Positions 15,664-59,041 of a stretch of 64,000 nt of DNA are shown piece by piece (the stretch's first letter is position 1; every line of letters starts with the position of its first letter). The stretch covers positions 871,804-935,803 of the forward strand of contig CAVXAL010000003.1 in assembly GCA_963759765.1 (NCBI GenBank), in the 5' to 3' direction. This DNA is from Candidatus Aminicenantes bacterium. GTDB taxonomy: Bacteria > Acidobacteriota > Aminicenantia > UBA2199. The translations under genes were made by a program, and so were the position numbers. A model generated the notes under the pieces. That model was not told the DNA's origin. It searched no databases and was given only the letters and a program-made list of their open reading frames with translations.

Positions 15664-17553
15664 TGGCGCTTGCTCGAAACGCATCGACTTTCCCTCGGAC
15701 CTGTCAAGAAACTGAGCCTGGAGGAATTGTGCCGAGCTCTCGGAGGAGATCCGCGAATTGCTCATCCAGGTGGTGGCGCGCAACGGCGGGCACCTGTCGT
15801 CCAACCTGGGCGTGGTCGACCTGACCCTGGCCCTGCACCGGGTCTTCGACGCTCCGCGCGACAAGATCATCTGGGATATCGGCCACCAGTGCTACACCCA
15901 CAAGATCATCACCGGCCGCCGGGGGCGGATCTTCTCCATCCGCAAAAAGCGACGGCCTGCTGGGATATCCCGGACCGCGAGGAAAGCGAGTACGACGTGC
16001 TCAACACCGGCCACGCCTCGACCTCGCTGGGGTTCGCCTCGGGCCTGGCCATTGCCCGTGACCGCCAGCGGCGAAAAATTTCATATCGTGGCCGTCATCG
16101 GCGACGGCGCGCTGACCGGCGGCGTGGCCCTGGAGGCGCTGAACCATATCGGCCAGGTCAAGCAGCGGCTGATCATCATCCTCAACGACAACAAGATGTC
16201 GATATCGCCCAATGTCGGCGGCATTTCCCGCCATCTGAACTACCTGGTCTCGGGCCGGCCCTACATCCGCATGAAGGAAGTGATCCAGAACATCCTCAAG
16301 TCGATCCCCGCGGTCGGCAAGTCGCTGTACGAATTGGCCAAAAAAATCGAAGTGCTGATGCGCACCATGATGGTGCCCGGGTCGCTTTTCGATGAGCTGG
16401 GCATCAAGTACATCGGCCCGGTCAACGGCCACGACTTCGCCGAGATGCTCAAGGAATTCGAAGACGGCCAAGAAATACGATTTCCCGGTGCTGCTGCACG
16501 TGGTGACTCGCAAGGGCCAGGGCTACGAGCCGGCGGTCGACGATCCCAGCTTCCTATCATTCGTCGTCGCCCTTCAACATCGAGAACGGCAAGTTCATCG
16601 ACAAGGACGAGCCGGTCTCCTACTCGCAGGTGTTCGGCCGCACGCGTGCTGCGGCTGGTCGAGAACGACCGCGCGCTCGTGGCTTTGACCGCGGCCATGC
16701 CCGAGGGCACGGGCCTGGACCCGGTGCAAAAGGAATTCCCGGAGAATTTTTTCGACGTGGGCATCGCCGAACAGTACATGTTCGATTTTGCCGGCGGCCT
16801 GGCCCTGGGCGGGCTGAAGCCCGTGCATGGGCGTCTATTCCACCTTCATGCAGCGGGCCGTGGACCAGATCATCCACGATATTTCACTGATGCGCATCCC
16901 GCTGGTGGTCGGCCTGGACAGGGCCGGTCTGGTCGGCGGCGACGGCCCGACGCACCAGGGGCTCTACGACATCGCCCTGCTGCATGCCGGTTCCCACATC
17001 GGTGCTGATGGCGCCAAAGGACGAAAACGAGCTGCAGCACATGGTTTACACCGGCCAGCCGACTGCGAAAGCCCGTGTTCATCCGCTATCCCAAGGAGCC
17101 GGGCCGGGGCGTGACATTGGACAAGGAGTTGCGATTCATCCCGGAAGGCAAAGCCGAGGTGCTGAGGCAGGGCCGTAACGGCGCGGTTCTGGCCGTGGGA
17201 ACGTTGGCCTATCCGGCGCTGTCCGTTGCCGAACGACTGCAGCGCCAGGAGGGCATCGATCTGACCGTGGTCAATATGCGCTACCTCAAACCGCTGGATA
17301 CGGAGTGCTGGACCAACTGCTGTCCCAGACCCAGAAGATCGTCACCATCGAGGATGGCGTCAAGCGGGGCGGTTTTGGCATGCTGATCCAGGATTACCTG
17401 ATGCAGCGAGACTGCCAGGACCATCGGCATCTGCTCCTGGGGATCCCGGAAGAGATCGTGCCCCTGGCCTCACGCCCGCAACTGCTCGCCAAATACCGTC
17501 TCGACGAAGAGGGTCTCTACACCGACATCCGCCGTTTCCTGCTCAATCGGTAA
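15663..17553 (+). CDS. dxs: 1-deoxy-D-xylulose-5-phosphate synthase (several frame breaks)
   Basis: Motifs include [91 protein letters not shown] and [12 protein letters not shown]. The C-terminus is [20 protein letters not shown]. Confidence 0.88.
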
Positions 17554-17939: not shown

Positions 17940-20613
17940 ATGGCCGACTCCCTGCTACTGATCGACGGTATGTTCCTGATTTTCAGCTCCTTTTATGCCA
18001 ACCGCGGCATGCGCACGCTCAAAGGGGAGCCCACCGGGGCCCTCTACGGCTTCGTCACCCGGGTCGAATATCTTCTCAAGGAGCTGAAACCCCACCGCAT
18101 CGCCGTGGCCTTCGACTCCAAGGAAAAAAATTTCCGCCAGCAGCGCTACCCGGAATACAAAGCCAAGCGGCTGCTGCCGCCGGAAGAATTGCTGCAGCAG
18201 ATTCCCTTTGTCAGGGATTACCTCGCCGCCCGCGACATCCCCCTGTTCGAGGTCCCCGGCTTTGAGGCCGACGATCTCATCGCCCAGCTGGCGAAAAAAT
18301 GCGCCGCGGCCGGCAAGCAGGTGTTCATTTTTTCCGCCGACAAGGATCTTTTCCAGCTGGTGCGGGAGAACGTCTCCATCTACCATCCCAAGCTGAAGCA
18401 GAAGCTCGACCGCCAGGAGTTGAAGGAGCTGTTCGGGGTCTACCCCGAGCAGGTGGTCGATTACCTGGCGCTGGTGGGCGACGTATCGGACAATATCCCC
18501 GGCATTCCCGGTGTGGGGGAGAAGACGGCGCTCAAGCTCATCGAGCGTTTCGGCAGCCTGGACAGCCTGCTGAAAAATCTGGCCGATGTGGATCCCAAGC
18601 TGCGCGAGAAAATAGAGAAGAATGCGGATCATTTGGAGCTGGCCCGTGAACTGCTCGACCTCAACCGGGTTCCGGACATCACCGCCGACCTAAAGATCGG
18701 CGAGTTCCGTGACCAAAGCGGCCAAGCGCTGATCGCTCTGTATCAGCGTTTTTCCTTCAACAGCCTGCTTAAGAAGATGGCGGCCGAGATCCCCGCCGCC
18801 CCCTCAACACTGGCCGTGACTTACCACCTGGTGACCGACCGCAAACAGCTGGGCGAGCTGAAGGCAAAGCTCCGCAAACAGCCGCTGGTTGCCCTGGATC
18901 TGGAGACAACGGAGATCGAATTTTTCAAATCCCGGCCGGTGGGCATCTCCTTCGCTTTTGACGACGAGGGTTACTATATCCCTTTCCTCTACCCGCCCGA
19001 ACCCGGCCGGAAGGTCGAGCTGACCCTTGAGGATGCGGTCGGCGCGCTGAAGGAAGTCTTGGAGACCCCACGCATCAGAAAAACCGGCCACAACCTCAAG
19101 TTTGACCTGCTGCATCTGCGCCAGCTGGGCATTGCCGTGGCGGGCATCGCCGACGATACCATGCTCATGTCCTATCTGCTCTTTCCCAACCGCCGTTCCC
19201 ACAGCCTCAAAGAGCTCAGCGCCGAATTCTTCAATTACCAGCAGACCGAGTACGCCGAGCTGACGGGAAAAGGCAAGGCGCAGCGGGCGCTGGCCGACAT
19301 CGAGCTGGAAAAAATCAGCCGCTACTGCATCGATGATTCCTACTTGCCGCTGAAGCTGGCCGAGAAGCTGCGGCCCAACCTGGAGGAGAAAAAGCTCCTC
19401 GCCCTGTACCGCGATGTGGAAATCCCGCTCGTCGGTGTGCTGGAGGCCATGGAGTTTGCCGGCATGAAGTTGGACCGGAATTTCTTAAAATCCGCCGCCC
19501 GCACGTTGAAAAAAAGGATTGCCGCGATCGAAGCCGAGATATACCGTCTGGCCGGTTGCGAGTTGAACTTGAATTCGTCCCAGCAACTGGGCGATCTGCT
19601 CTTCAACAAGCTGAACCTGCCGTTGAGCAAGAAAACCCAGAAGACCAAGGCCTTTTCGACCGACAGCGAAGTCCTCAACGAATTGAAGGGCTTCCCCGTG
19701 GTGGAGAAGATCATCGACTACCGCACCCTGAAGAAATTGCTTTCCACCTACGTGGAAGGACTGCTGGTCGCCATGGATGACAACGACCGCATCCACACCT
19801 CCTTCAACCAGACGGTCACCGCCACCGGGCGCCTCTCCTCATCCAACCCCAACCTGCAAAATATCCCCGTGGGCGAGGTGGGGGGAGTGAACATGCGTTG
19901 CGCCTTCATCGCCGAAAAGGGCCTGGCCCTGCTGGCTGCCGACTACTCCCAGATCGAACTGCGCGTGCTGGCCCATTTTTCCCAGGACGAGCGCCTGCTC
20001 GATGCATTCCGCCACGACCGCGACATCCACCAGCACACCGCCGAGCCTGGTCTTCGGCCCGGAAGCCGGCCGGCCGGAAATGCGGCGCCGCGCCAAGATC
20101 ATCAACTTCTCGATTATCTACGGCAGCGGTCCCTTTTCCCTTTCCAAAGAATTGGGCATCGGCTACGGCGAAGCAAAAACGTTCATCGACACCTACTTTG
20201 CCCAGTACAGCGGTGTGAAACGCTTCATTGACCGCGTCATCGGCGAGGCCGAACAAACAGCCGAGGTGCGCACCATTCTGGGCCGCATCCGGCAGATCCC
20301 GGAGATCCAGAGCTCCAACCGGGCGGTGAAGGAGAACGGCAACCGCATGGCCATCAACTCCATCATCCAGGGCAGCGCCGCCGATATCATCAAGCTGGCC
20401 ATGATCGGCATCCAGCGGCGGTTGGCGGGGCTGCGCAGCCGGCTCCTGATGCAGGTGCACGACGAGCTTGTATTCGAATATCCTCCCGCTGAGGAAAAGC
20501 GGCTGACAGAAATCGTCCGCCAGGAGATGGAACATGCCCTGAAGCTGGACGTGCCAATCAAGGTCAGCCTGCAGAGGGGGGGCAACTGGGGGGAATTGGA
20601 GGAGATGTTCTGA
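17940..20613 (+). CDS. polA: DNA polymerase I (one frame break near ~20040)
   Basis: The 5'-nuclease domain shows LLIDGMFLIFSSFYA and GDVSDNIPGIPGVGEKTALKLI. A 3'-5' exonuclease-like region shows LDLETT. The polymerase domain shows LLAADYSQIELRVLAHFS, RRRAKIINFSIIYG and QVHDELVFE. It spans ORFs 17940..20231 and 20002..20613. Confidence 0.92.
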
Positions 20614-20639: not shown

Positions 20640-21590
20640 TCAGTGCCTGCCTGCTGGGTCAGCCAAAGCGGATTCGTAGAGCCATTGATTGATTTTCTCT
20701 TTGTCTGGCTCGCGGCCGGGCAGAATTTCTTCCCAGGTCTCCTCGTCCTCCATGCACAAATACAGGGGCAGGTCACACGAAATCCGTTTCTCAATCAAGC
20801 GTTTGATGCGGCTGAACAGGTCCAGGCGCAGGGGCTTGAAGTAGCGGTATTTGCCGTCAAAACCGGGAACCAGTTCGCCCCAAAACAGCTGAGATTGCCG
20901 ACGTTTGAAAATGTGCTCCTTCAGTTCCGGCGGAAAGCGCAGCGCCCCCAGGCTCCACCAGGCGATGCGCCCCGGTTGCACGATTTTCCCGATTTCCGTA
21001 ATCAGCGCGGCATAGTGTGTGAGCCAGGCCGGAAAAAGAATCAGCGGGTCAAAATGGATGCCGATTTTGAAGCCTTTTTCCATGATTCGCCGCAGGGCGC
21101 TCAGCCGTTGTTTCAGGCTTGCTGTGCCCGCTTCCTCGCGGCGAATGAGCGCCGCGGGATTGAGCGACCAGGAGACGACGATATTCGGAAGCGGGCGGGG
21201 GTAGGCGAGCAGGTCGGCCACCCGGTCGGACTTGGTTTTGAATTCGAAAACAATCTGCGGATGGGTTGCGAAAAGCTCCAGTAATTTCCTGGCAGAAGGG
21301 GCTTGCCGCTCGCAGGCCAGTGAATCCGAGAGCTCGCCGTTGCCGATGCGCACGGCCCGGTGCCCGGGGGCCAACTGGCGAACCTCCTTTTCCACCGCAG
21401 CAAAGTCGCTAAAAAAACGGGGCCGCTTGCTCGGCAGGTAGCTCTGCAGGATGCAGTAGGAACAGGAAAAGGGGCAGCCGGTATGGAGGTTTAAATTGTA
21501 ATATCCGCAGGAGACGGCGCCCGGCGTGCAGGGGCAAGGCTTTATGAAGGCCCCTTTTTTACTTTTTGATTGAATCATTCTTTTAAACAA
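20640..21590 (-). CDS. spore-photoproduct-lyase-like radical SAM protein
   Basis: The ORF is 316 aa with a CX3CX2C cluster (GCPFSCSYCILQSY). The overall pattern resembles the SplB / DNA-repair photolyase family, recalled from memory. The annotated TTG start may really be ATG 21578. The first ~15 codons are AT-rich. Confidence 0.6.
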   Translation of the reverse strand: MFKRMIQSKSKKGAFIKPCPCTPGAVSCGYYNLNLHTGCPFSCSYCILQSYLPSKRPRFFSDFAAVEKEVRQLAPGHRAVRIGNGELSDSLACERQAPSARKLLELFATHPQIVFEFKTKSDRVADLLAYPRPLPNIVVSWSLNPAALIRREEAGTASLKQRLSALRRIMEKGFKIGIHFDPLILFPAWLTHYAALITEIGKIVQPGRIAWWSLGALRFPPELKEHIFKRRQSQLFWGELVPGFDGKYRYFKPLRLDLFSRIKRLIEKRISCDLPLYLCMEDEETWEEILPGREPDKEKINQWLYESALADPAGRH

Positions 21591-21644
21591 TGTTCATTAT
21601 AAAAAATTTTTTTGGAAAACTAAAAATTGTTAAATTTGACTTGG

Positions 21645-21683
21645 TTGTTTACTCAAATAAAAAATAGTATAATTTATTTGAGT
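21645..21683 (+). promoter_or_regulatory. promoter (TTGTTT-N17-TATAAT) embedded in a perfect 11-bp inverted repeat, a putative operator
   Basis: ACTCAAATAAA (21651-21661) and TTTATTTGAGT (21673-21683) are exact reverse complements separated by 11 nt. TATAAT is at 21668-21673. The methyltransferase ATG is at 21689. Confidence 0.5.
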
Positions 21684-21688
21684 TTGAT

Positions 21689-22549
21689 ATGAAAGATATA
21701 TCAATAAATTTGTTCCTCGGGGACTGTGGAGTTGAGCTAAAAAAAATCGAGGATAATTCTGTTGATCTAATCTTTACTTCACCACCATATGCCGACAGTA
21801 GAAAAAATACCTATGGCGGCATTCATCCCAACAAGTATGTGGATTGGTTTCTCCCGATTTCATATGAATTGTTAAGAGTTTTAAAGCCCACTGGAACATT
21901 TGTTTTGAATATAAAAGAAAAAGTTGTAAATAGTGAGCGCCATACGTACGTTATGGAATTGATTTTGGGGATGAAAAAACAAGGTTGGCTTTGGACGGAG
22001 GAATTCATTTGGCATAAAAAGAACTGCTATCCAGGAAAGTGGCCAAATAGGTTCAGGGACGCATGGGAGCGATTGCTCCAATTCAACAAAACAAAAAAAT
22101 TCAATATGTTCCAGGATCGGGTTATGGTAGCTGTCGGTGAATGGTCGAAAGACAGGTTGAGAAATTTGAGTGAAATTGACAGGATCAGAGATAATTCGAA
22201 GGTAGGAAGCGGTTTTGGAAAAAAAATTTCTAATTGGATTAATAGAACTTATGTGTATCCAACTAATGTATTGCATCTCGCGACCGAATGCAGTAATAAA
22301 AATCACAGTGCGGCATTTCCGGCATCACTTCCGGAGTGGTTTATAAAATTATTTACAAATGAATTTGATACCGTTTTGGATCCTTTTATGGGTTCCGGTA
22401 CAACCATATTAGTTGCTCGTAACTTGAATAGAAATGCCATCGGAATTGAAATAGTTCCTGAGTATTTTGAAATTATAAAAAATAAAATTAAAGAAGATCG
22501 TTCTCTTTTTAATCAAGGTTTATTTTATGAACAAGCTAAAAATTTCTGA
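21689..22549 (+). CDS. beta-class N4/N6 DNA methyltransferase (SPPY motif, probably N4-cytosine)
   Basis: The ORF is 286 aa. Motif IV (DLIFTSPPY) is near the N-terminus and motif I (DPFMGSGTT) near the C-terminus, which is the beta permutation. HSAAFPASLPEWFIKLFT is also typical of the PF01555-type family. Confidence 0.85.
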   Translation: MKDISINLFLGDCGVELKKIEDNSVDLIFTSPPYADSRKNTYGGIHPNKYVDWFLPISYELLRVLKPTGTFVLNIKEKVVNSERHTYVMELILGMKKQGWLWTEEFIWHKKNCYPGKWPNRFRDAWERLLQFNKTKKFNMFQDRVMVAVGEWSKDRLRNLSEIDRIRDNSKVGSGFGKKISNWINRTYVYPTNVLHLATECSNKNHSAAFPASLPEWFIKLFTNEFDTVLDPFMGSGTTILVARNLNRNAIGIEIVPEYFEIIKNKIKEDRSLFNQGLFYEQAKNF

Positions 22550-23255
22550 TGTAGTTAAATATGTTGAAGAAAACATCGGGACATTCCATGAGCGAAGACT
22601 TAGAAGTCTTAAAGAACTTGAATTAAAAAAAATTCTCAAGAGGAAAAATCCATATCTTTTCAGGGCCAAAGATATTTTGACTTCGCATGAACTTGTCAAG
22701 GTAATCTTAGATGCCCATCTTTCTTCCCAAGAAGAAACTATTTTCGGAGAGTTTTTGGAAGGGCTCGCAATTTTTATTTGCAGTAAAGTTCATAACGGAC
22801 AAAAATCCGCTGCTGAAGGAATTGATTTAGAATTTGTGAAAGATGGGATAAAGTATATCGTTACGATAAAATCAGTGCCGAATTGGGGGAACAATAGTCA
22901 AATCAAAAAAATGCTAGATAATTTTCGGAAAGCCAAGAAGGTGTTGGGCACTAGTGCTGCTAGAGTAAACATCGTCGCAGTAAATGGATGCTGTTACGGT
23001 AAGGACGATAATCCTGAAAAGGAAGAGTATCAAAAATTATGTGGACAACGTTTCTGGGCATTCATTTCTGGAAATGAAAATTTATTTACTGAGATTATAG
23101 AGCCATTAGGACATCAGGCAAGAAAACGGAACGATGAATTTATTGAAAAGTATGCCCAAATTATCAATAAATTTACTTATGCCTTTGGAAAAGAATTTAG
23201 TCGTAATGGAAGAATTAACTGGAAAAAGTTGGTTAAATTTAATTCTTCAAAATAA
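22527..23255 (+). CDS. putative type II restriction endonuclease (cognate of the upstream methyltransferase)
   Basis: The 242-aa ORF overlaps the methyltransferase stop by 23 nt. The segment RKNPYLFRAK...GIDLEFVKDGIKYIVTIKSVPNWGN looks like a PD-(D/E)xK-type core. From memory it resembles TdeIII/Eco47II-like REase families, which I could not verify. Confidence 0.55.
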   Translation: MNKLKISDVVKYVEENIGTFHERRLRSLKELELKKILKRKNPYLFRAKDILTSHELVKVILDAHLSSQEETIFGEFLEGLAIFICSKVHNGQKSAAEGIDLEFVKDGIKYIVTIKSVPNWGNNSQIKKMLDNFRKAKKVLGTSAARVNIVAVNGCCYGKDDNPEKEEYQKLCGQRFWAFISGNENLFTEIIEPLGHQARKRNDEFIEKYAQIINKFTYAFGKEFSRNGRINWKKLVKFNSSK

Positions 23256-23277
23256 AAAAGTAGTTTTCTGTTGTTAA

Positions 23278-24195
23278 TTAAAAATTTCTACATGCATCCA
23301 AGTCAATTTCAAGGGGTTTACTATAAGGTTCAAATGGAGCTGGTTTTTCGGTGTTTGAAATACATTTTGATGGTATTTTTAGTTTCAATTCTTCTATAAG
23401 ACTTCGAATTTCAGGATCTGATTCAGATTTAACCTTCACTTTTAAACTGGGATAAATTATCATCGCAAACCAAGGATCTTGATTAATTTTTTCTTTATTT
23501 GTTTTTAATGGAATTAAAAACTCTGGTTTTTGTTGAGTATTCATATACATTTCTTTGAATTCTTTATCATCCATGTAATAAGATGGCATTCTGAATTTTT
23601 CCAATATTTCTTTTTTTCCTATTTGTTCTAATCTTTCTTTTATTTCATTTGAATAAATTATTCGCCATTCTGATTCATCAAAATATTTATATTCCCATGT
23701 TCCATCTGGGATTGATTTTTCAGCCATCTGTTTTAGAAAACATAAAAAAAATTCATTGAATTTTGTATTTTCATTTGCAATTGACAAGAATGGTGGGAAA
23801 AACCAATTCTTTCTCGATGGATGATAATAAACCATTGGACATCCAAGACGATCAAACAAAAAAAACCGTTTAAATCCGATACCCAATCTTCCAAATCTTG
23901 ATGCATGTAATCGAACTTCAGATAATTTTAATTCCGTAAAACAAGTTCTTGCAGTCAATGGGCGCTCAATTTTTTCTCCATTAATTAAAAGATATCTTTC
24001 ACTTTCGTCCCTTGTCATCCATAGTCCATATTTTAATATACTTTTTAATCGCTTCAGATAAAGCTCAGTAACTTCATTATTCGTACTTGATGAATGTTTT
24101 TCGAACCAATTTTTATCATATTTGTCATCAATATCTCTTTTTCCTGTCCAATGAATAATAAAATCTGAGTGATAAGGTTTATATTGTTTATACAC
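23278..24195 (-). CDS. AbiGi-like (abortive-infection family) protein, solitary
   Basis: The ORF is 305 aa with a GTG start and AAGGAG 7 nt upstream. FIIHWTGK, LKSILKYGLWMT, CFTELKLSEVRLHASRFGRLGIGFKRFF and YFDESEWRIIY match my memory of the AbiGi (PF10899) pattern. No AbiGii-like partner is present. Confidence 0.5.
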   Translation of the reverse strand: MYKQYKPYHSDFIIHWTGKRDIDDKYDKNWFEKHSSSTNNEVTELYLKRLKSILKYGLWMTRDESERYLLINGEKIERPLTARTCFTELKLSEVRLHASRFGRLGIGFKRFFLFDRLGCPMVYYHPSRKNWFFPPFLSIANENTKFNEFFLCFLKQMAEKSIPDGTWEYKYFDESEWRIIYSNEIKERLEQIGKKEILEKFRMPSYYMDDKEFKEMYMNTQQKPEFLIPLKTNKEKINQDPWFAMIIYPSLKVKVKSESDPEIRSLIEELKLKIPSKCISNTEKPAPFEPYSKPLEIDLDACRNF

Positions 24196-24271
24196 AAGGG
24201 ATCTCCTTTTTCGAGGTTAACTTACATCTTTACTTTTAGATCAATTATTTGTTCTAGTCAATATTAATGAT

Positions 24272-25633
24272 TTATCCAATAAAAAACATACGTATATCCA
24301 TGACGTTGGCGCTGGTGGGGCCGGTGATCCAGAGCTGATTGAGGGCTTTGAAGAAACGGTGGGAGTCGTTCTGGCGCAGGTGGCGGTCGATATCCAGGTC
24401 CAGGCGCTGAGCCTTGGCTCGGGTCTGCTGGTCGATCCAGGCGCCGGCTGCGTCGGTCGGACCGTCGATGCCGTCGCTGCCCAGGCTCAGGGCGAAAAAA
24501 GGATAGGGCAGCTCTTCCAGCTCTTTAAGGAGTTGCAGCATGAACTCCTGGTTGCGGCCGCCCTGGCCCCGGCCGCTCACCGTGACCGTGAGTTCGCCTC
24601 CGGCCAGAAGCAGCAGGGGCGGCTGCCAGGGTTGACCGGTTTGAGAGATCTTTTTGATCAGGGCCGCATAGACGCGGGCCGCTTGGCGCGCCTCGCCGCT
24701 GTCCCGGGAAGTTAGAATGTCGGTGCGCAGCCCCTGGCGCCGGGCCGCCGCGCACAGCGAATTCAGCGCCACCCGGTTGTCGCCGAGAATGGCGTGGCCA
24801 TGGCCGGCAAAACGCGCATCGCCGGGCTTGGGCGTTTCCGGTATTTCCCCTGCGCGCGCTCGCGAAAAGCAATTTCGTAGGTGCGGTCCCAGACGGGCCA
24901 GAAGATCGTGGCGCTCGAGTATGTCCAGCGCCTCCGGCCAGGTGCTCGGATCGGGGATGGTCGGCCCCGAGCCGATGTCCTCGGGCGGTGAGTCGATGAT
25001 GTCGGAAACGATCAGGGTCAGCACCCGGGCCGGATGAAGCCGCGCGGCCAGCCGGCCGCCCTTGATGGCTGACATGTGCTTGCGCAGGCAGTTGAGTTCG
25101 CGGATGGGGGCACCTGCGGCCTGCAGCCGGCGGGTGATGGCGATCTTGTCGCGCAGGCGGAAAGGCGGCAACGGTTCGGTCAGCAGCGCCGACGCACCGC
25201 CCGTCACCAGGAAGAGGACCAGATCGTTGGCGCCGATATGATTGTTGGCGTAGCGGCGGAAGGCCCATGCCGCCTGCAGGTTGCGGCGGTCGGGCAGCGG
25301 ATGGGCACCGGAGACAACCTCGATGTTCGAGTCCGACTGTGCCGGGCTGTCAGCCGGAGCCACGATCACCCCGCCGTGAATCCTGTTTTTTAAAACGTGC
25401 GCCGCGCCCCGCCAGAAGGGGAGGGCGCCTTTTCCCGCAGCCAGCAGGTGGATCTTTTCAACTCCCCTAAGGGAAAAAAGTTCGCCGCAAACGAGAAGTT
25501 CCCGAGGCCGGACGGTCAGCTTCTCCCTGAGCAGGAGTCCGGGATCAACCGCCTGCAGGGCGGCGCGGACGAGCTGGCGGCTGAGGGCTTTAATGACCCT
25601 GGATTTTGGCCAGGGTGATAGCGGACTGCCCAT
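24272..25633 (-). CDS. glycerate 2-kinase / hydroxypyruvate reductase family (DUF4147 + MOFRL)
   Basis: The ORF is 453 aa. Motifs include LLAAGKGA, VSGAHPLPD, LVTGGASALL, ELNCLRKHMSAIKGGRLA, LIVSDIIDSPPEDIGSGPT and the MOFRL-like C-terminus LAGGELTV...GGRNQEF...LGSDGIDGPTDAAGA. Confidence 0.8.
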   Translation of the reverse strand: MGSPLSPWPKSRVIKALSRQLVRAALQAVDPGLLLREKLTVRPRELLVCGELFSLRGVEKIHLLAAGKGALPFWRGAAHVLKNRIHGGVIVAPADSPAQSDSNIEVVSGAHPLPDRRNLQAAWAFRRYANNHIGANDLVLFLVTGGASALLTEPLPPFRLRDKIAITRRLQAAGAPIRELNCLRKHMSAIKGGRLAARLHPARVLTLIVSDIIDSPPEDIGSGPTIPDPSTWPEALDILERHDLLARLGPHLRNCFSRARAGEIPETPKPGDARFAGHGHAILGDNRVALNSLCAAARRQGLRTDILTSRDSGEARQAARVYAALIKKISQTGQPWQPPLLLLAGGELTVTVSGRGQGGRNQEFMLQLLKELEELPYPFFALSLGSDGIDGPTDAAGAWIDQQTRAKAQRLDLDIDRHLRQNDSHRFFKALNQLWITGPTSANVMDIRMFFIG

Positions 25634-51616: not shown

Positions 51617-54046
51617 ATGAGAAGTGGCAGCGGCGTGTGCACGCGCACGCTGGCCGGTCTTTTTTTCGTCACCCTGGCCACTCTGATGTACGAGATCCTG
51701 CTGACCCGCATCTTCAGCGTGACCATGTGGTACCACTTCGCTTTCATGGCTATCTCCATCACCATGTTCGGCATGACGCTGGGGGCGCTGATCGTCTACC
51801 TGGTTCCGGCCTGGTTTTCCCGCGCCAGGATCCACGACCAACTGACCCTGAGCGCCTTGCTGTTTTCGCTTTTCATTGTGATTTCCTGTCTCATCCATCT
51901 GAACGTGCCGTTCAATCCCCGCTGGACGCCGGCAGGAATCGGTTCCATGGCTCTGACCTACGCGGCCATTTCGCTGCCTTTTATCTTCAGCGGCATCGCT
52001 GTTTCCCTGGCCCTGAGCCGTTTCCCTGCCGACGTCGGCCGCCTGTATGCGGCTGATCTGGTCGGCGCGGCTGCCGGGTGCCTGCTGCTGCGCTACATCC
52101 TGGAGATCATGGATGGGCCTGGCGCGGTGCTGGCCGTGGCCGCGCTGGCCGCTCTGGGCGCGTTGTTCTTTGCCGGTCGGGAGGTTGGCGGCAAGGTTCG
52201 CTCACTGGCTTTGACCGCCTGTCTGGCTTTTGTGCTTTTGACCGGTATCAATATATTCCTGTTCCAGCAGCAACACCCCCTGCTGCGGGTCAAATGGGTC
52301 AAGGACAGACCGGAGATGCGGCTGATTTACGAAAAATGGAGTTCGTTCGCCCGGGTGGCCATTCGCCACGATCGCTTGCAGCAGCCGATCGGCTGGGGAA
52401 TGAGCGACATCTGGATTCCCCGGCAGAACGTCGACCAACTTTACATGGACATTGACGCCGCGGCGTCCACGGTGCTCACCTCGTTCAACGGCAACCTGCG
52501 GGAGCGCGAATACCTGAGGTACGACATCACCAACCTGGCTCATTACCTGCGGCCCCGATCCGACGTGCTGGTCATCGGCACCGGAGGCGGCCGCGACATC
52601 CTCTCCGCCCTGGTGTTTGACCAGAAATCGGTCACCGGCATTGAAATCAACGGCGACATCCTGCACGCGGTCAACCGCACTTTTGGTGATTTCACCGGCC
52701 ACCTCGACCGAGATCCGCGGGTGACGTTCATTCGCGACGAGGCGCGTTCCTATGTTTCAAGGCTGAAGACGCGCTTCGACATTATCCAGGTGTCGCTGAT
52801 CGACACCTGGGCCGCGACCGCGGCCGGGGCTTTCGTGCTGGCGGAGAATTCCCTGTACACGCTGGAAGCCTGGGAAAACTTCCTGCGCCATCTCCGCTCC
52901 GACGGCATTCTGACCTTCTCCCGCTGGTACAACGGCGGTCTGCCCGCGGAGATGTATCGGCTGACCTCGCTGGCTGCCGGGGCCTTGCGCCGGCTGGGGA
53001 ACACGGAGCCCGAGCGCCATATCCTCATCGCCCGTCACATGCTGCCCAAATATGACCGGCGCCTGGGAATCGGGACCATGCTGGTCAGCGCGTCGCCCTT
53101 TTCCGACCGGGATATTGACGAATGGCAGCGGGTCTGCGACCGCCTCCATTTTGAGATGGTTCTCAGCCCCCGTTCGGCCGCGGATGCCAATTTCGCGACA
53201 ATAGCCTCGGGCCGGGATTTGCAGGCATTCACCGCTGCCTTTCCCCTCAACATCTCGCCGCCCACAGACGACAACCCCTTCTTTTTCAACATGCTGCGGC
53301 TGCGCGACGCCATCAAGCCGCGGCTCTGGCAAAAGGAACTGGACCTGAGTTTCAACTTGCGGGCAGTGGCCGTTCTGGGCATCCTGCTGACCATCGTGCT
53401 GCTGCTGACGCTCCTGTGCATTGCGGTGCCGCTCGGCTTGACGGTGCGGCGCACGCCGCTGCGGGGGACCTGGCCCGATTTCCTCTATTTCGCCTCCATA
53501 GGCTTCGGCTTCATGCTGGTGGAAATTTCCCAGATGCAGCGCCTGAACGTGTTTCTCGGTCATCCCAACTACGGCCTGTCTGTGGTCCTTTTTTCTTTGT
53601 TGCTGGCCAGCGGTATCGGCAGCTTTCTGACTGCGAAGCTCAAATGGCTGGCCGCCAACACCCGCAACGTCTGGCCGCTGGTGCTGCTGCTGGGTCTGCT
53701 GCTGCTGTTCGGGAAATTGACGCCACTGGTCACTTCGTCACTTGCCGGAGCCTCCACCCCGCTGCGGATCGCTGTGGCTGTGGGCTTGTTGTTCCCCCTG
53801 GGTATTTTCATGGGCATGGCCTTTCCCCTGGGCCTGCGCTGGGTGGCCGACCGGGCGCACGCCTTGACGCCCTGGCTCTGGGGAATCAACGGCGCGACTT
53901 CCGTTTTCGCATCGGTGCTGGCCACTGCCATTGCCCTCAGTTCCGGTATTGCCGCCTCCTTCTGGACCGGTTTTGTATTTTACGGCTTGGCGTTATTGGC
54001 TTATACCTTGAGCCCTTTAACTTCAGCATATGAAAACGTTTTGTAA
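51617..54046 (+). CDS. fused polytopic membrane / spermidine-synthase-like (class I methyltransferase-fold) protein
   Basis: The ORF is 809 aa. About 7 N-terminal TM helices are followed by a soluble domain with VLVIGTGGGRDILSALVF...VTGIEINGDI...DIIQVSLIDTWAATAAGAF, which is an aminopropyltransferase-like fold. About 6 more TM helices follow. Confidence 0.65.
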   Translation: MRSGSGVCTRTLAGLFFVTLATLMYEILLTRIFSVTMWYHFAFMAISITMFGMTLGALIVYLVPAWFSRARIHDQLTLSALLFSLFIVISCLIHLNVPFNPRWTPAGIGSMALTYAAISLPFIFSGIAVSLALSRFPADVGRLYAADLVGAAAGCLLLRYILEIMDGPGAVLAVAALAALGALFFAGREVGGKVRSLALTACLAFVLLTGINIFLFQQQHPLLRVKWVKDRPEMRLIYEKWSSFARVAIRHDRLQQPIGWGMSDIWIPRQNVDQLYMDIDAAASTVLTSFNGNLREREYLRYDITNLAHYLRPRSDVLVIGTGGGRDILSALVFDQKSVTGIEINGDILHAVNRTFGDFTGHLDRDPRVTFIRDEARSYVSRLKTRFDIIQVSLIDTWAATAAGAFVLAENSLYTLEAWENFLRHLRSDGILTFSRWYNGGLPAEMYRLTSLAAGALRRLGNTEPERHILIARHMLPKYDRRLGIGTMLVSASPFSDRDIDEWQRVCDRLHFEMVLSPRSAADANFATIASGRDLQAFTAAFPLNISPPTDDNPFFFNMLRLRDAIKPRLWQKELDLSFNLRAVAVLGILLTIVLLLTLLCIAVPLGLTVRRTPLRGTWPDFLYFASIGFGFMLVEISQMQRLNVFLGHPNYGLSVVLFSLLLASGIGSFLTAKLKWLAANTRNVWPLVLLLGLLLLFGKLTPLVTSSLAGASTPLRIAVAVGLLFPLGIFMGMAFPLGLRWVADRAHALTPWLWGINGATSVFASVLATAIALSSGIAASFWTGFVFYGLALLAYTLSPLTSAYENVL

Positions 54047-54178
54047 TTTTTTTAGATAGGGTTCAGGCCAGTCATTAAACTATATAATTGTCTGCTTTTG
54101 AAAATATCTCTTAACTTCCATGCCTCGGTTTACGCATTTGAAAATGAAAAATTCAAGAACCGTCCTCTTTTAGGTTGC

Positions 54179-55522
54179 TTATCGTTGTATGGATCGAATG
54201 CGCGCCGCCCGGGCCTCCAGTGATTCGGCGTCCTTGATACGGCCGGTTTTTCGAAAGAGTTTTGCCATGTTCTCAAGGCTCGCGGCCACAAAGGGATGAT
54301 CCGGGCCGAGGACCTTCTCATAGATCGCCAGCGAGCGTTTGTAGAGCGGCTCGGCCTGCGCGTACTTGCCTTGGGCGCGATATAGTTCTGCGAGATTGTT
54401 TAGGCTGGTGGCCACTAAGGGATGATCCGGGCCGAGGGTTCTCTCATATATTGCCAGCGAATGCTTGAAGAGTGGTTCAGCCCATATGTACTGGCCTTGG
54501 TCGCATTGCAGTTCCGCGAGATAGTTCAGGCTCGCGGCCACATCAGGATGATCCGGACCGAGGGATTTCTCCCTAATTGCCAGCGAACGCTTGAAGAGCG
54601 GCTCAGCCTGTTCGTATTTGCCTTGGACGTGATACAGTTCTGCGAGATTGTTAAGGGTCGTGGCCACATCGGGATGCTCAGGGCCGAAGGCCTTTTCATT
54701 AATCGCCAGAGAGCGTTTGTAGAGCGGCTCGGCCTGTTCATACTTGCCTTGGACGCGATACAGCTCTGCAAGATTGTTCAAGCTCATCGCGACATTGGGA
54801 TGATCAAGGCCGAAAGCCTTTTCATTGATCGCCAGCGATCGCTTGAAGAGCGGCTCAGCACATGCATACTGGCCTTGGGCTTGATATAGTGATGCGAGGT
54901 TGTTCAGGATCTGGGCCACATCAGGATGATCCGGACCGAGGGCCTTTTCCAAGATCGTCAACGAACGCTTGTAGAGCGGCTCGGCCTGCGCGTACTTACC
55001 TTGGGAATCGTACAGTTCCCCGAGGTTGCCCAAGCTCGCGGCCACATTGGGATGATCCGGGCCGCGGGCCTTCTCCAAGATCGCCAGAGAGCGCTTATAG
55101 AGTGGCTCGGCCTGTTCGTACTTGCCTTGAGCGCGATTCAGTAACCCGAGATTGTTCAGACTCTGGGCCACATCAGGATGATCCGGCCCGAGGGCTTTCT
55201 CCCTAATCGCCAGCGAGCGCTTGTAGAGCGGCTCGGCCTGCGCGTATTGACCTTGGGCACGATACAGTTCCGCGAGGCTGTTCAGGCTCGTGGCTACATT
55301 GTGATGATCCGGGCCAAATGCCTTCTCTGCCACCTCGAGTGCCTTCTTCGCAACGACCACTGCACGGTCATATTTACCAGCGCGAAAAAGATCCGTAACT
55401 TCCTTATTCAACTTTTCCCATTCAATGCCTTGTGAGCACACAGGGGCTAAAAATAGCAACAGCACAGCAGCCCTCCCAATTGCCCTGATTAAATTCATCA
55501 TGTTCCCGTCTCCTATATGCAC
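54179..55522 (-). CDS. secreted TPR protein with ~9 tandem 42-residue (TPR_12 / kinesin-light-chain-type) repeats
   Basis: The ORF is 447 aa with a signal-like N-terminus (MMNLIRAIGRAAVLLLFLAPVCS). The repeated unit is SLNNLAELYRAQGKYAQAEPLYKRSLAIxEKALGPDHPDVA. Confidence 0.85.
   Translation of the reverse strand: MHIGDGNMMNLIRAIGRAAVLLLFLAPVCSQGIEWEKLNKEVTDLFRAGKYDRAVVVAKKALEVAEKAFGPDHHNVATSLNSLAELYRAQGQYAQAEPLYKRSLAIREKALGPDHPDVAQSLNNLGLLNRAQGKYEQAEPLYKRSLAILEKARGPDHPNVAASLGNLGELYDSQGKYAQAEPLYKRSLTILEKALGPDHPDVAQILNNLASLYQAQGQYACAEPLFKRSLAINEKAFGLDHPNVAMSLNNLAELYRVQGKYEQAEPLYKRSLAINEKAFGPEHPDVATTLNNLAELYHVQGKYEQAEPLFKRSLAIREKSLGPDHPDVAASLNYLAELQCDQGQYIWAEPLFKHSLAIYERTLGPDHPLVATSLNNLAELYRAQGKYAQAEPLYKRSLAIYEKVLGPDHPFVAASLENMAKLFRKTGRIKDAESLEARAARIRSIQR
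54230..55400 (-). repeat. imperfect 126-bp tandem coding repeats (TPR units)
   Basis: The 42-aa periodicity is visible in the protein (AEPL[YF]K[RH]SLAI occurs 8 times) and in the DNA. Boundaries are approximate. Confidence 0.7.
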
Positions 55523-55747
55523 CTAATATTCTTTAGTACTGTTGAAAAATCGGCTGGAGTGAAAAGCTCACTTGATGAGTAATGCGCAGCAGCTTCAACC
55601 ATGCTTCCACCGCTGGCACAACCTTCCATCTCTTTCCTATCTCCACCCTATAGCTTCTTCTAATGATATTTTCTTAGCATACCCGGGAACAAATTTCAAA
55701 TTTTGATTAGAGTGAACATAGACAAAACGTTCCTCCCAAGGCAGTAC

Positions 55748-55777
55748 TTGACACGACGATCCCGCTGCGCCTACTAT
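55748..55777 (+). promoter_or_regulatory. candidate promoter TTGACA-N18-TACTAT
   Basis: TTGACA is at 55748-55753 and TACTAT at 55772-55777. A GGGGTGGAG SD-like stretch lies before ATG 55801. Confidence 0.4.
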
Positions 55778-55800
55778 TTAAGTAGGGGTGGAGATGAAAA

Positions 55801-56325
55801 ATGAGTATTAAGGACTTTTTTTCGTTTAAAAAGAAGCTGACAATTGACACCACCGCCCCAAAAGAACTCCAAGGATTATCATTATTCTCGCAGGAAAACA
55901 TGGGAAAAGCATTTGAATTGACCACGCAAAAACTTCAAGAACTTCTAAATTTAAAGGATGTGCCTGGTCGCAAAGAAATTGTTGATCGCTTCCATATAAC
56001 AAATCAGGAATTCAATGTACTTTATGCTAGTTATTACGGGTCGCTCTTTGCCGATCATGGCACAGAGGGTGGGTGGAATGAAGATTGTGATGATTTCGCT
56101 CGGGAAATCGGCGCCCTCTCCGACGCAGAAATCGAAAATGCAAAAAAAAATCTTCATTTAGCTATATTGAATCGGATAAAGTTGCGTTTTATAAGTTCGG
56201 ATAAATATGCAAAAGCTGCGCGCTTTCCTCAGCGCCTCGAACGGGGTGCTAAGCCCTTTCAGGCACTTATGAGTCAAATCCCACTTTTTCGGAGCGAGGA
56301 TGCGGTTCCAGTCGATGCTCGGTGA
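55801..56325 (+). CDS. hypothetical protein (174 aa)
   Basis: The ORF is intact, sits in a lower-GC patch, and has no recognisable motif. It overlaps the next ORF by 26 nt. A T5 run at 56285-56289 could alternatively fuse the two ORFs. Confidence 0.5.
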   Translation: MSIKDFFSFKKKLTIDTTAPKELQGLSLFSQENMGKAFELTTQKLQELLNLKDVPGRKEIVDRFHITNQEFNVLYASYYGSLFADHGTEGGWNEDCDDFAREIGALSDAEIENAKKNLHLAILNRIKLRFISSDKYAKAARFPQRLERGAKPFQALMSQIPLFRSEDAVPVDAR

Positions 56326-56809
56326 ACTGGCTTACACTGGTCTCGAGATTTACGATGATCCGGGTCTGGGCATTAGTCTCCGCTACGAGCGCGGCATTAC
56401 CAAGGCCACCGTGTATCTTTACGACCTCGGTTTGGAACACATCCCCGACGACATTCGCTCCGAGACAGTGACCCAGTTTTTCCAGCAGGCATGCAGCGAC
56501 GTCTTTGTCTCTGCAGATTGTGGCAGTTATCTCGACCTTAAGACGCGCGCCTCGCAGTATCTTCACCTCCCAGCCGATTCGCTCGTCCCGATGTATCTAT
56601 GGGCGGCATTTTATTACCGTCAGGCACCTGGCCCCGGTGTTGACTACTTGGGTTTTCGATTCTCCCACGTTTTGCTTCGAACGGACGGTGGCTACATTAA
56701 TAAGGTTCGCTACACATATCCCGCGCACCCCACGCACACAGCCACTGATGCCGAACGGGGCATGATGCACTTTTTACTCGACTGGTATAACGCAATCCCT
56801 AAGGACTAA
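56300..56809 (+). CDS. hypothetical protein (169 aa)
   Basis: The ORF is intact, with GGAG 5 nt upstream of the ATG. It has no recognisable motif. It may be the C-terminal part of a single ~336-aa protein. Confidence 0.5.
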   Translation: MRFQSMLGELAYTGLEIYDDPGLGISLRYERGITKATVYLYDLGLEHIPDDIRSETVTQFFQQACSDVFVSADCGSYLDLKTRASQYLHLPADSLVPMYLWAAFYYRQAPGPGVDYLGFRFSHVLLRTDGGYINKVRYTYPAHPTHTATDAERGMMHFLLDWYNAIPKD

Positions 56810-56906
56810 CATGTGCGTGCAGCTTATTAACTTATCGCTCGCTGCTGATGCAAGGCGCTTCAGCCGATGTCTAATGCGCCTTCTCCGTCCGTTTGTGCGA
56901 TATTCT

Positions 56907-58274
56907 CTACTTACAATGTTCTTTTATTAAATCGTATGCCTGAGTAGATCCAAGTTCACCAGCTTTTCTTAAATCAAGACATCCGCCGTCTTTGTCTCCA
57001 AGTGCAATCTTTAAAAGCCCTCTTCCAATATATGCCTTTGCATCTTTCGGGTTTAACTCAATGACCTTTGTAAAATCATCTATAGCACCACGATAGTCTT
57101 CAAGTTTATCTTTTGCAATCCCTCTATAAAAATATGCACTCGCCTCTTTCGGATTTAGCTCGGTGGCCTTCGTTAAATCAGCTATGGCTCCGTGATAATC
57201 TTTAAGGTCGTCTTTTGCAATCCCTCTATAAAAATATGCACTCGCCTCTTTCGGATTTAGCTCGGTGGCCTTCGTTAAATCAGCTATGGCTCCGTGATAA
57301 TCTTTAAGGTCGTCTTTTGCAATCCCTCTATTATAATAGGCATCTGTATATTTCGGATCTAACTCGATAGACTTTGTAAAATCATCAATGGCTCCTTTAT
57401 AGTCTGCAAGTTTAGCTTTTAAAACTCCTCTTTGATGATAAACCTCTGCATTTTTAGGCTCTAACTCGATGGCTTTTGTGCAATCCTGAATACCTCCGGT
57501 ATAGTCTTTAAGTTTACCCTTAGAAAATCCTCTATTATTAAATGCCATTGCATATTTCGGATTTAGCTCGGTTGCCTTCGTGAAATCGGCTATGGCTCCG
57601 AGATAGTCTTCAATTTTATACTTTGCATTTCCTCTGTTAAAATATGTCATTGCATTTTCCGGATTTAACTCGATGGCCTTCGTATAATCCTGGATGGCTC
57701 CATGATTGTCTTCAAGTTTATACTTTGCAAATCCTCTGAGAATAAATCCTTTTTCATTTTTCGGATCTAAATCAATGGCCTTTGTAAAATCCTCTATGGC
57801 TCTGAGATAGTCTTCAAGTTCACCTCTCGCATGCCCTCTATTATAATATGCATCTATATATTTTGGATCTAATTCTATGGCATTCGTGTAATCCTCTATG
57901 GCTCCGCGATAGTTTTGAATACTAACTTTTGCATCTCCTCTTTTAAAATATACTATGAAGCTACGTACTGCACATTCCGGATCTTCTAACTCGATAGCCT
58001 TCGTGTAATCCTCTATGGCTCCGAGATAATTCTTAAGTTCTTCTTTTGCAATCCCTCTATAAAAATATGCATCTGCAAATTTCGGATCTAACTTGATGGC
58101 TTTTGTAAAATCCTTTATGGCTCCATGATGGTCTTCAAGTTTATACTTTGCAAACCCTCTATCACAATATGCCTTTGCATCTTTCGGCTTAGCGGCTTTC
58201 ATATAGCTCGAAAAAAACAATGACAAAATAACTAACAAGATAACATAACGATTTTTTTCTTTTTTTGATGGCAT
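56907..58274 (-). CDS. TPR-repeat protein (classic 34-residue repeats), low GC, signal/anchor at the N-terminus
   Basis: The ORF is 455 aa. The N-terminus reads MPSKKEKNRYVILLVILSLFFSS. About 12 repeats follow the form AxAYxxRGxAKxxLxDYxGAIxDxTKAIELxPK. Confidence 0.85.
   Translation of the reverse strand: MPSKKEKNRYVILLVILSLFFSSYMKAAKPKDAKAYCDRGFAKYKLEDHHGAIKDFTKAIKLDPKFADAYFYRGIAKEELKNYLGAIEDYTKAIELEDPECAVRSFIVYFKRGDAKVSIQNYRGAIEDYTNAIELDPKYIDAYYNRGHARGELEDYLRAIEDFTKAIDLDPKNEKGFILRGFAKYKLEDNHGAIQDYTKAIELNPENAMTYFNRGNAKYKIEDYLGAIADFTKATELNPKYAMAFNNRGFSKGKLKDYTGGIQDCTKAIELEPKNAEVYHQRGVLKAKLADYKGAIDDFTKSIELDPKYTDAYYNRGIAKDDLKDYHGAIADLTKATELNPKEASAYFYRGIAKDDLKDYHGAIADLTKATELNPKEASAYFYRGIAKDKLEDYRGAIDDFTKVIELNPKDAKAYIGRGLLKIALGDKDGGCLDLRKAGELGSTQAYDLIKEHCK
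57109..57330. repeat. perfect 102-bp tandem duplication (2.2 copies) inside the TPR gene
   Basis: 57109-57210 is identical to 57211-57312, and the first 18 nt recur at 57313-57330. Each copy encodes exactly one 34-aa TPR unit (ELNPKEASAYFYRGIAKDDLKDYHGAIADLTKAT, twice). Confidence 0.9.
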
Positions 58275-58400
58275 TTGTCCCCCTCGAAAAGATATTACGA
58301 AGAATTTTATTAAATTTCAACTTCTCTTGCAACTGGTCCAAAAGAATTAAGTTTTTACCTCTTCATATAGTCGATCCTATCCGAGCTTGGCGCAGGAAAG

Positions 58401-58429
58401 TTGCATTTATAACCAAATTGGTATAAAAT
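58401..58429 (+). promoter_or_regulatory. candidate promoter of the hdr cluster (TTGCAT-N17-TAAAAT)
   Basis: TTGCAT is at 58401-58406 and TAAAAT at 58424-58429. AGGAG lies 6 nt before ATG 58457. Confidence 0.45.
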
Positions 58430-58456
58430 CCGTATTTCATTTTTCAGGAGACGCCG

Positions 58457-59041
58457 ATGAGTGGCGACACCATCACTGCCCGCAACCGTTCAGCCCTGGC
58501 CGATCAGGCCCTGAAGCGCACCGCCGTCAGCGTCATTCGTTGTTACCAGTGCGGCAAGTGTTCGGCGGGCTGCCCGCTGGCCGCAGACATGGATTATCCC
58601 CCCAGCCTGATCATGCGCATGCTGCAAACCGGGGCTGCCGATCTGGAAGAGAAGGTGCTGCGTTCCTATACCATCTGGCTTTGCCTCTCCTGCGAAATCT
58701 GTTTCGCCCGTTGCCCGATGGAAATTGACATCCCCAAGCTGATGGATTTTTTGCGCGGCGAGTCGTTGCGCCGGAAGATGGTCTCTCCCAAAGCCAAAGA
58801 GATTCTCGCTTTCCACCGCTCGTTTCTCGATACCGCTGCGCTCCACCGGCCGGCTCTATCGAAGTGGGGCTGATCGCCGACTACAAGCTTCGTTGCTGGC
58901 ATTTCCTCCAGGACCTGCTGCTGGCGCCCTGGATGCTGGCCAAGGGCAAGCTGCATCTGTTTCCGGAACGGGTCCGCAACCGTCGGCAGATGCGCCAGAT
59001 TTTCCGACGCAGCCGCACCCCCCGCCAGGAGAGGCCCATGA
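58457..59041 (+). CDS. hdrC: heterodisulfide reductase subunit C-like (2x[4Fe-4S]); frame breaks, 3' end inferred
   Basis: It has two ferredoxin motifs, CYQCGKCSAGCP and CLSCEICFARCP. It continues in another frame (GLIADYKLRCWHFLQDLLLAPWMLAKGKLHLFP). The stop is assumed at the ATGA overlap with hdrB. Confidence 0.7.

Follow-up and report, generated by a model that had tools for sequence, protein, structure and literature searches.

A partner-less gene of a divergent AbiGi clade in a low-GC islet of a Candidatus Aminicenantes bacterium, and its possible role as a stand-alone defence effector

The DNA analysed here is a stretch of 64,000 nucleotides from a Candidatus Aminicenantes bacterium (contig CAVXAL010000003.1, positions 871,804 to 935,803), referred to below as the window. 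It contains a gene for a 305-residue protein related to AbiGi, one of the two proteins of the lactococcal abortive-infection system AbiG. The gene shares a small islet of low guanine-plus-cytosine (GC) content with a type II restriction-modification (R-M) pair. A preliminary description of the window, made from its letters, had placed a solitary AbiGi-like gene at 23278-24195 and had proposed that a stand-alone AbiGi protein tied to R-M genes might be an uncharacterised defence configuration. The position and the 305-residue product proved accurate, with the minus strand as the coding strand: the open reading frame (ORF) runs 24195..23278, from a GTG start at 24195 to a TAA stop at 23280-23278, and the plus-strand translation of 23278-24195 is interrupted by stops throughout. 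The gene and the features of its product are as follows.

23278..24195, minus strand: AbiGi-like gene, 305 aa, intact, with a GTG start and all 32 clade-invariant columns kept
24203..24206, minus strand: Shine-Dalgarno sequence GGAG, 7 nt 5' of the GTG, as read from the sequence
24145..24153, minus strand: H15-W16-T17 (HxT) at the end of strand beta-1, a candidate NAD-binding motif I; HFT in canonical AbiGi
24061..24141, minus strand: clade-specific insertion of ~26 residues (~20-45), absent from canonical AbiGi and a gap in the hhalign alignment
24019..24048, minus strand: LKSILKYGLW helix-strand block, aligned with NLIxIL of canonical AbiGi
23932..23943, minus strand: C85-F86-T87-E88 at the end of a beta-strand that is followed by a helix, a candidate motif II; CFCD in canonical AbiGi
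23860..23895, minus strand: FGRLGIGFKRFF block, conserved in the clade alignment and in the hhalign comparison
23662..23676, minus strand: E174-S-E176-W-R (ExE) at the start of a beta-strand, a candidate catalytic motif III
23281..23637, minus strand: C-terminal part, ~residues 187-305, with the conserved end DLDACRNF; lacking in many shorter relatives

All four motif blocks on which the AbiGi resemblance had been based were present in the translated product, namely FIIHWTGK (residues 12-19), LKSILKYGLW (50-59), FGRLGIGFKRFF (101-112) and ESEWR (174-178). Alignment of 64 homologues from many phyla revealed 32 invariant columns, including W16, G18, L54, L58, W59, C85, F86, E88, H97, G102, L104, G105, G107, K109, R110, Y123, K155, E174, E176 and W177, and H15, T17 and R178 were conserved in at least 90% of these sequences. 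Thus, the motif blocks are not chance matches. The ORF is full length by comparison with its homologues and has lost none of the clade-invariant residues; the gene is intact. An AlphaFold2 model built from the 64-sequence alignment predicted a compact, single-domain-like alpha/beta structure, with a predicted local distance difference test score (pLDDT) of 90.3 and a predicted template modelling score of 0.90. The alignment and the model show a strongly conserved protein that is confidently predicted to fold as one compact alpha/beta unit. A consensus scan of the 77-bp gap upstream of the gene found no strong sigma-70-type promoter, and read-through from the upstream glycerate-kinase operon is a possible route of expression.

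Profile searches with the single protein gave a divided result on the AbiGi assignment. The PADLOC AbiGi model matched significantly (E = 2.1e-8), with residues 50-218 aligned to positions 30-208 of the 260 in the model; the Pfam AbiGi family PF10899 was matched over a 28-residue stretch only, at 17.6 bits (E = 0.0042), which is below its gathering cut-off of 22.4 bits, and the 305-residue protein had no match in NCBIfam. Comparison at the level of families substantiated the relationship. PF10899 was matched at E <= 0.01 by 53 of 64 clade members, the best at 3e-8. For a canonical reference, a protein matching PF10899 at 140 bits from a genome of the same phylum was used as a seed, and 43 family members were aligned. 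Alignment of the clade profile with this canonical profile by hhalign gave a probability of 97.2% and an E value of 4.3e-11, with HxT, CFx[DE]L, GxGIG, P-x-x-Y and [DE]ExEWR in register; the HxT of the clade lined up with the HFT of canonical AbiGi, and the ExE motif has counterparts in the DEREWR of canonical AbiGi and the EESEWR of DUF2971 proteins. The signature order HxT, CFx[DE]L, [FY]GxxGIG, [DE]ExEWR was found in both alignments. Because the two profiles align with these motifs in register, the 305-residue protein is assigned, by sequence comparison, to a distinct and divergent clade of the AbiGi superfamily.

Members of this clade are numerous in metagenomes, with more than 540 homologues of 280-310 aa, the closest 59% identical, carried as "hypothetical protein" or without a name. 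An exhaustive profile search of 1.84 billion representative sequences returned 1018 clusters at E <= 1e-3, of which 117 reached E <= 1e-30, and many shorter relatives (230-260 aa) matched profile positions ~7-186 only. The clade is spread patchily over at least ten phyla at 35-60% identity; its hosts include Omnitrophota, Planctomycetota, Acidobacteriota, Bacteroidota, Proteobacteria, Elusimicrobia and one Nanoarchaeota metagenome-assembled genome (MAG). In a Planctomycetia MAG, two clade ORFs of 399 and 246 aa stand in tandem (L035, 6688-8687), as a duplication or a split gene. The canonical family is larger, with more than 3000 matches, many of them named "abortive infection system antitoxin AbiGi family protein", and in one-genome-per-species data 535 loci were recovered for canonical AbiGi and 42 for the clade. 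Within the phylum of the host, PF10899 was matched in 2 of 301 genomes. What is new here is confined to a clade without database annotation and a tidy example of its recent transfer; solitary canonical AbiGi is already annotated.

The preliminary description had noted that no AbiGii gene accompanies the AbiGi-like gene, and this was borne out at the locus: apart from the AbiGi-like gene, the islet contains just the R-M pair, and its gaps of 99, 22 and 77 bp leave no room for a second gene. AbiGii (PF16873) was also unmatched elsewhere in the 2.85-Mb assembly, a weak negative given that the assembly is ~74% complete and that the same search matched in no control genome. The flanking ORFs of relatives were called by a simple longest-ORF rule and clustered all-against-all. 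Across 41 distinct genomic loci of the clade, no flanking-ORF family was common to the loci beyond close relatives; the best 80 of the 535 canonical loci likewise had no conserved neighbour, and AbiGii_2 was not among the families matched by at least two of 150 ORFs flanking canonical AbiGi. The canonical AbiGi examples of Clostridium perfringens and Psychroflexus are solitary, and the former adjoins type I hsdM/hsdS. Since neither the 41 clade loci nor the 80 canonical loci have a conserved partner, AbiGi-domain genes normally occur without AbiGii, and the solitary state is the rule. By the same surveys, the conserved adjacent partner of a toxin-antitoxin pair is lacking. Also absent is what defines the two-gene AbiG system, an AbiGii gene (PF16873, ~400 aa) next to AbiGi in one operon. 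Thus, the gene belongs to the AbiGi superfamily and not to the two-gene AbiG system.

Genes of defence and mobility lie near some of these relatives. Pfam and PADLOC searches of 147 ORFs within two genes of clade members identified GmrSD-type enzymes (3), PIN proteins (2), a type I restriction endonuclease, HerA and "mads" components, and an integrase family was present in 4 loci. The closest homologues adjoin a NucS-like nuclease and a reverse transcriptase in one case and an integrase and HipBA in another, and others lie near SIR2-HerA or near HicA and IS110. The GmrSD-type (DUF262) enzymes, at 3 of the 41 loci, stand directly or two genes upstream of the clade member (L016, 5678-7792; L019, 6198-7394), and the one at L016 is fused to a Schlafen AlbA_2 domain. 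Overall, defence or mobile genes lie near relatives at a minority of loci, and a conserved co-occurrence with R-M genes was not found.

The R-M pair itself, described beforehand as the neighbour on the opposite strand, was confirmed. Adjacent cognate methyltransferase and restriction endonuclease genes are present, as in a type II R-M system.

21689..22549, plus strand: type II DNA methyltransferase (N6_N4_Mtase; Pfam E = 6.7e-47, PADLOC MTase_II E = 9e-46)
22527..23255, plus strand: EcoO109I-family type II restriction endonuclease (Pfam RE_EcoO109I E = 1.8e-86), overlapping the methyltransferase gene by 23 nt

The endonuclease gene and the AbiGi-like gene are convergent, with 22 bp between their stops. 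At least 113 relatives of the endonuclease were found, and the loci of the best 80 (57-70% identity) were searched with hidden Markov models of both AbiGi alignments. None of these 80 loci had an AbiGi-like ORF within 5 kb; the same models recovered the AbiGi-like gene of the window at E = 6.5e-134 and 6.9e-8. Conversely, N6_N4_Mtase and RE_EcoO109I were not among the families matched by at least two of the 147 clade-flanking ORFs. Given the absence of AbiGi-like ORFs from the endonuclease loci, the three islet genes are a mosaic and not a conserved module. The proposal that a stand-alone AbiGi protein tied to R-M genes is a special configuration was therefore not supported: solitary AbiGi genes are the norm, the surveyed endonuclease relatives have none nearby, and the closest relatives of the AbiGi-like gene adjoin other genes. 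No C-protein ORF is present by the R-M pair. Just upstream of the methyltransferase gene lies a 16-nt inverted repeat, 88% complementary with 1 nt between its arms (21651-21683), that could be an operator. In a relative (G009), a methyltransferase gene 69% identical at the DNA level lies between giant ORFs of 1640 and 1572 aa (L062, 5031-6095), without an endonuclease or AbiGi-like gene.

Exactly three genes, those for the methyltransferase, the endonuclease and the AbiGi-like protein, make up the islet, which has ~30% GC overall in a genome of ~60%. The islet and the two core genes that bound it are as follows.

~21560..24295, no strand: low-GC islet of ~2.7 kb, with 24-41% GC per 200-bp window; the flanks and the remainder of the 64-kb window have 55-70%
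20640..21590, minus strand: left flank, radical-SAM or spore-photoproduct-lyase-like core gene, with its first ~15 codons AT-rich
24272..25633, minus strand: right flank, glycerate-kinase-type core gene (DUF4147 and MOFRL), with its last ~7 codons AT-rich

A relative of the same family and another genus (G003) has an empty site, in which the stop of the kinase gene and the start of the lyase-like gene are 2 nt apart. It follows that the islet was inserted into what had been an operon; it is horizontally acquired, and the AbiGi-like gene is a recent import. No integrase, tRNA-type landmark or terminal direct or inverted repeat was found at the islet ends, where the repeats detected were AT-rich noise. 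Both junctions fall within the flanking genes (24272-24300 and 21545-21590), and the peptides encoded by their AT-rich ends are still homologous to those of G003. At the end of the kinase, NVMD is followed by IRMFFIG here and by LRLFAIP in G003, the two stops being in equivalent places, and the head of the lyase-like protein reads MIQSKSKKGAFIK followed by PCPC here and ERGPFLRH followed by CPC in G003. These ends suggest a swap in which a low-GC donor of the same gene order supplied the cassette along with the adjoining gene ends, and they argue against an assembly chimera.

At the same site, another relative (G011) carries a peptidase S9 gene and a gene for a TIG-domain protein, both of native GC content. 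A defence hot spot between the glycerate kinase and the lyase-like gene was considered and rejected, since the genes found there in G011 are ordinary and have no PADLOC match. Thus, the insertion site is variable and not a dedicated defence hot spot. The host is placed in Acidobacteriota on two grounds: a genome classed in its phylum is a Thermoanaerobaculaceae MAG, and the kinase has its best named matches in Aminicenantes and Acidobacteriota. The assembly comprises 4 contigs and is 74% complete. The polA ORF (763 aa; region 17940-20613) covers positions 3-192 of 381 of DNA_pol_A, and the remainder of the gene (including IINFSIIYGSGPFSL and, farther on, QVHDE) lies in another frame at 20002-20613. 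This frameshift is probably an indel error, and such errors are therefore likely in the assembly. The dxs ORF at 15758-17008 looks truncated, and a second patch of low GC (0.38-0.51, with its minimum at 57-58 kb) extends over ~54000-59000 of the ~60% GC window and may be acquired.

Among characterised systems, the lactococcal AbiGi protein (plasmid pCI750; PF10899; PADLOC AbiGi) is homologous over a core of ~180 residues with the same ordered motifs and has a similar predicted alpha/beta architecture; both proteins are without a significant neighbour in the PDB (PMC13064643). The clade protein differs in the 26-residue insertion after HWTG, in a longer C-terminal part (ending DLDACRNF), in its sub-cut-off Pfam score and in the lack of AbiGii, and the clade occurs in uncultured Omnitrophota, Planctomycetota, Acidobacteriota and others, not on Firmicutes plasmids. 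Solitary AbiGi proteins of the LFHFT type (C. perfringens, Flavobacteriia) are likewise stand-alone, ~260 aa long, in variable regions and without a conserved neighbour. They sometimes lie beside R-M genes, as with the type I HsdM/HsdS neighbours in C. perfringens. That family is larger and annotated (535 loci against 42), whereas the clade described here goes under "hypothetical protein".

More distant resemblances are to one known and one predicted family of ADP-ribosyltransferases (ARTs). DarT, the DNA ADP-ribosyltransferase of DarTG (PDB 7omv/7omw), has a common N-terminal HxT ... L..IL..G pattern. It differs in having a single Glu where the AbiGi-like protein has the candidate catalytic ExEWR motif and in its partner: 16 of 17 retrieved and clustered DarT ORFs (L063-L084) have a conserved neighbour of ~350 aa, presumably the macrodomain antitoxin DarG, and the AbiGi-like gene has no DarG-like gene beside it. 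Within the phylum, DarT (PF14487) was found in 19 of 301 genomes. All comparisons of DarT with the AbiGi-like and canonical AbiGi proteins fell below significance. The predicted ART family DUF2971 (PF11185) has the H-x-T ... L..IL start and an [EQ]E-x-EWR motif in common with the AbiGi-like protein and differs in its middle region.

The AbiGi homology, a patchy distribution by horizontal transfer and the neighbours at some of the loci point to a role in abortive infection or defence. In the reading that we prefer, and to which we assign an even balance of probability, the protein is a one-gene, horizontally acquired, stand-alone effector of enzyme type belonging to a divergent AbiGi clade, and not an antitoxin. 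Phage infection would switch on its enzymatic activity, and phage transcription or replication would be stopped. In Lactococcus, AbiG acts against phage transcription, with a major tail protein as its trigger (PMC13064643). The chemistry would most likely be NAD+-dependent ADP-ribosylation of nucleic acid or protein, at a putative active site formed from H15 (HxT), C85-x-T87 and E174-x-E176, in line with the published DarT-like ART assignment of AbiGi. The clade-specific insertion and the C-terminal part may serve sensing or autoinhibition. The R-M pair and the AbiGi-like gene would then be independent layers of one small defence islet.

Published analyses and the predicted structures are the grounds for the ART proposal. 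AbiGi has been grouped with DarT (DUF4433) in one ART-fold assemblage by profile methods (Matteoli et al. 2018, with Aravind; PMC6192313), and a survey of Legionella ARTs placed AbiGi in the ART fold with significant similarity between AbiGi and DUF2971 (PMC12522546). A confident model of canonical AbiGi (pLDDT 91.9) retrieved the DarT entries 7omx, 7omw, 7omv and 7omy at Foldseek ranks 2-10, and these entries were its sole whole-length neighbours, at template modelling scores of 0.39-0.44. The HxT ... L..IL start shared with DarT and DUF2971 and the EExEWR shared with DUF2971 are visible by eye. The placement of the motifs fits the ART order, in that H15 ends strand 1, C85-x-T87 marks a strand end followed by a helix and E174-x-E176 marks a strand start after a long loop. 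In our reading, an NAD+-using transferase is the best available mechanism, held at somewhat less than even probability; enzymatic activity of one sort or another is much more probable than this particular chemistry.

Several observations weigh against this interpretation. Foldseek searches with the 305-residue model returned nothing significant from the PDB (best E = 1.5) or BFVD, and a sequence-profile search of PDB chains was also empty. The DarT matches of the canonical model were sub-threshold (E = 0.4-1.3, probability <=0.30). By hhalign, the probability was 2-7% against DarT (P = 0.005-0.02; a small alignment of 14 Acidobacteriota DarT genes) and 7-11% against DUF2971 (P = 0.003-0.005; an alignment of five sequences); the published significance was obtained with larger profiles. 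Neither lactococcal AbiGi nor AbiGii is toxic in Escherichia coli (PMC3985639), and a solitary toxic ART without an antitoxin needs some further control mechanism. The defence role is likewise not favoured by the absence of the clade from IMG/VR viral contigs, PLSDB plasmids and INPHARED phages. Many neighbours of clade members are housekeeping genes, including two-component systems, PEP-utilising enzymes, transporters and small-molecule methyltransferases. In a semi-quantitative comparison made from family tallies only, with no per-locus statistic, PADLOC matches among ORFs within two genes did not differ clearly from those among ORFs lying beyond 4.5 kb at the same loci; the distal control ORFs also yielded SIR2, HerA and methyltransferase matches.

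The many housekeeping neighbours and the indistinct near and distal tallies speak for a non-defence enzyme, such as a nucleic-acid or NAD-related modifier with a cellular or selfish-element role, that rides in variable regions. We nevertheless consider it unlikely, if deserving of attention. Cargo that moves horizontally typically shows the patchy spread seen here, over at least ten phyla and with identities of 35-60%. The gene is also rare, with PF10899 matched in 2 of 301 genomes from the phylum, and in this genome it sits in an AT-rich islet with an R-M system. Integrases, GmrSD, PIN, SIR2-HerA, HipA and HicA occur near its relatives, and it is homologous to a proven phage-resistance component. 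A further proposal, that the AbiGi-like protein and the R-M pair are one three-gene defence system in which the former acts as an abortive back-up when restriction fails or as a regulator of R-M, draws on the common AT-rich islet, the tight packing of the convergent stops at 22 bp and the probable joint arrival of the genes. It is contradicted by the 80 endonuclease loci without an AbiGi-like ORF within 5 kb and by the failure of N6_N4_Mtase and RE_EcoO109I to recur among the 147 clade-flanking ORFs. The closest homologues (55-59% identity) adjoin unrelated genes, and the convergent genes form no operon. Because co-occurrence is lacking, a three-gene system is largely refuted, and we hold it to be highly improbable.

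The family name suggests another function, that of an orphan antitoxin or anti-addiction factor directed against AbiGii-type toxins from mobile elements and devoid of enzymatic activity. Both Pfam and NCBI use the name "AbiGi, antitoxin", and AbiGi precedes AbiGii in the lactococcal operon (PMC3985639). The label is putative; neither lactococcal protein was toxic in E. coli in the same study, most family members have no AbiGii nearby, and the invariant His, Cys, Glu, Lys and Arg residues in a globular protein of 300 aa resemble an active site. The profile analyses in the literature also place AbiGi among ART enzymes (PMC12522546, PMC6192313). An antitoxin function is therefore very unlikely. 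A last explanation, which the polA gene split across frames and the completeness of 74% would favour, is that the islet carries the gene as a decaying passenger without function, or that the assembly created it. Against it, no invariant residue has been lost from the full-length ORF, a Shine-Dalgarno sequence precedes it, and both junctions preserve the flanking reading frames within one contig on the 0.9-Mb scale, unlike a chimeric join. We give this explanation scarcely any probability.

The AbiG system was reportedly described in 1996; to our knowledge, no structure of AbiGi exists, and its designation as an antitoxin is putative. Against this background, the locus has modest value. It opens no new question by itself, and its gene is an ordinary new member of a known family. 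It supplies a clear case, from a clade known only as hypothetical proteins, of a gene that is intact, was recently transferred and has no partner, and the surveys show that AbiGi-family genes ordinarily lack a partner and that the R-M genes beside them are coincidental cargo. A broader conjecture, which we regard as rather unlikely, is that partner-less AbiGi clades constitute a widespread form of single-protein anti-phage immunity: they would be self-controlled DarT-like ARTs whose insertion and C-terminal part would detect a structural protein of the phage and free the catalytic core. If so, neither AbiGii nor an antitoxin would be needed, and the antitoxin label would be wrong across the family. 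Collectively, the findings argue for considering AbiGi-type proteins as candidate autonomous effectors, with H15, C85/T87 and E174/E176 as candidate key residues.

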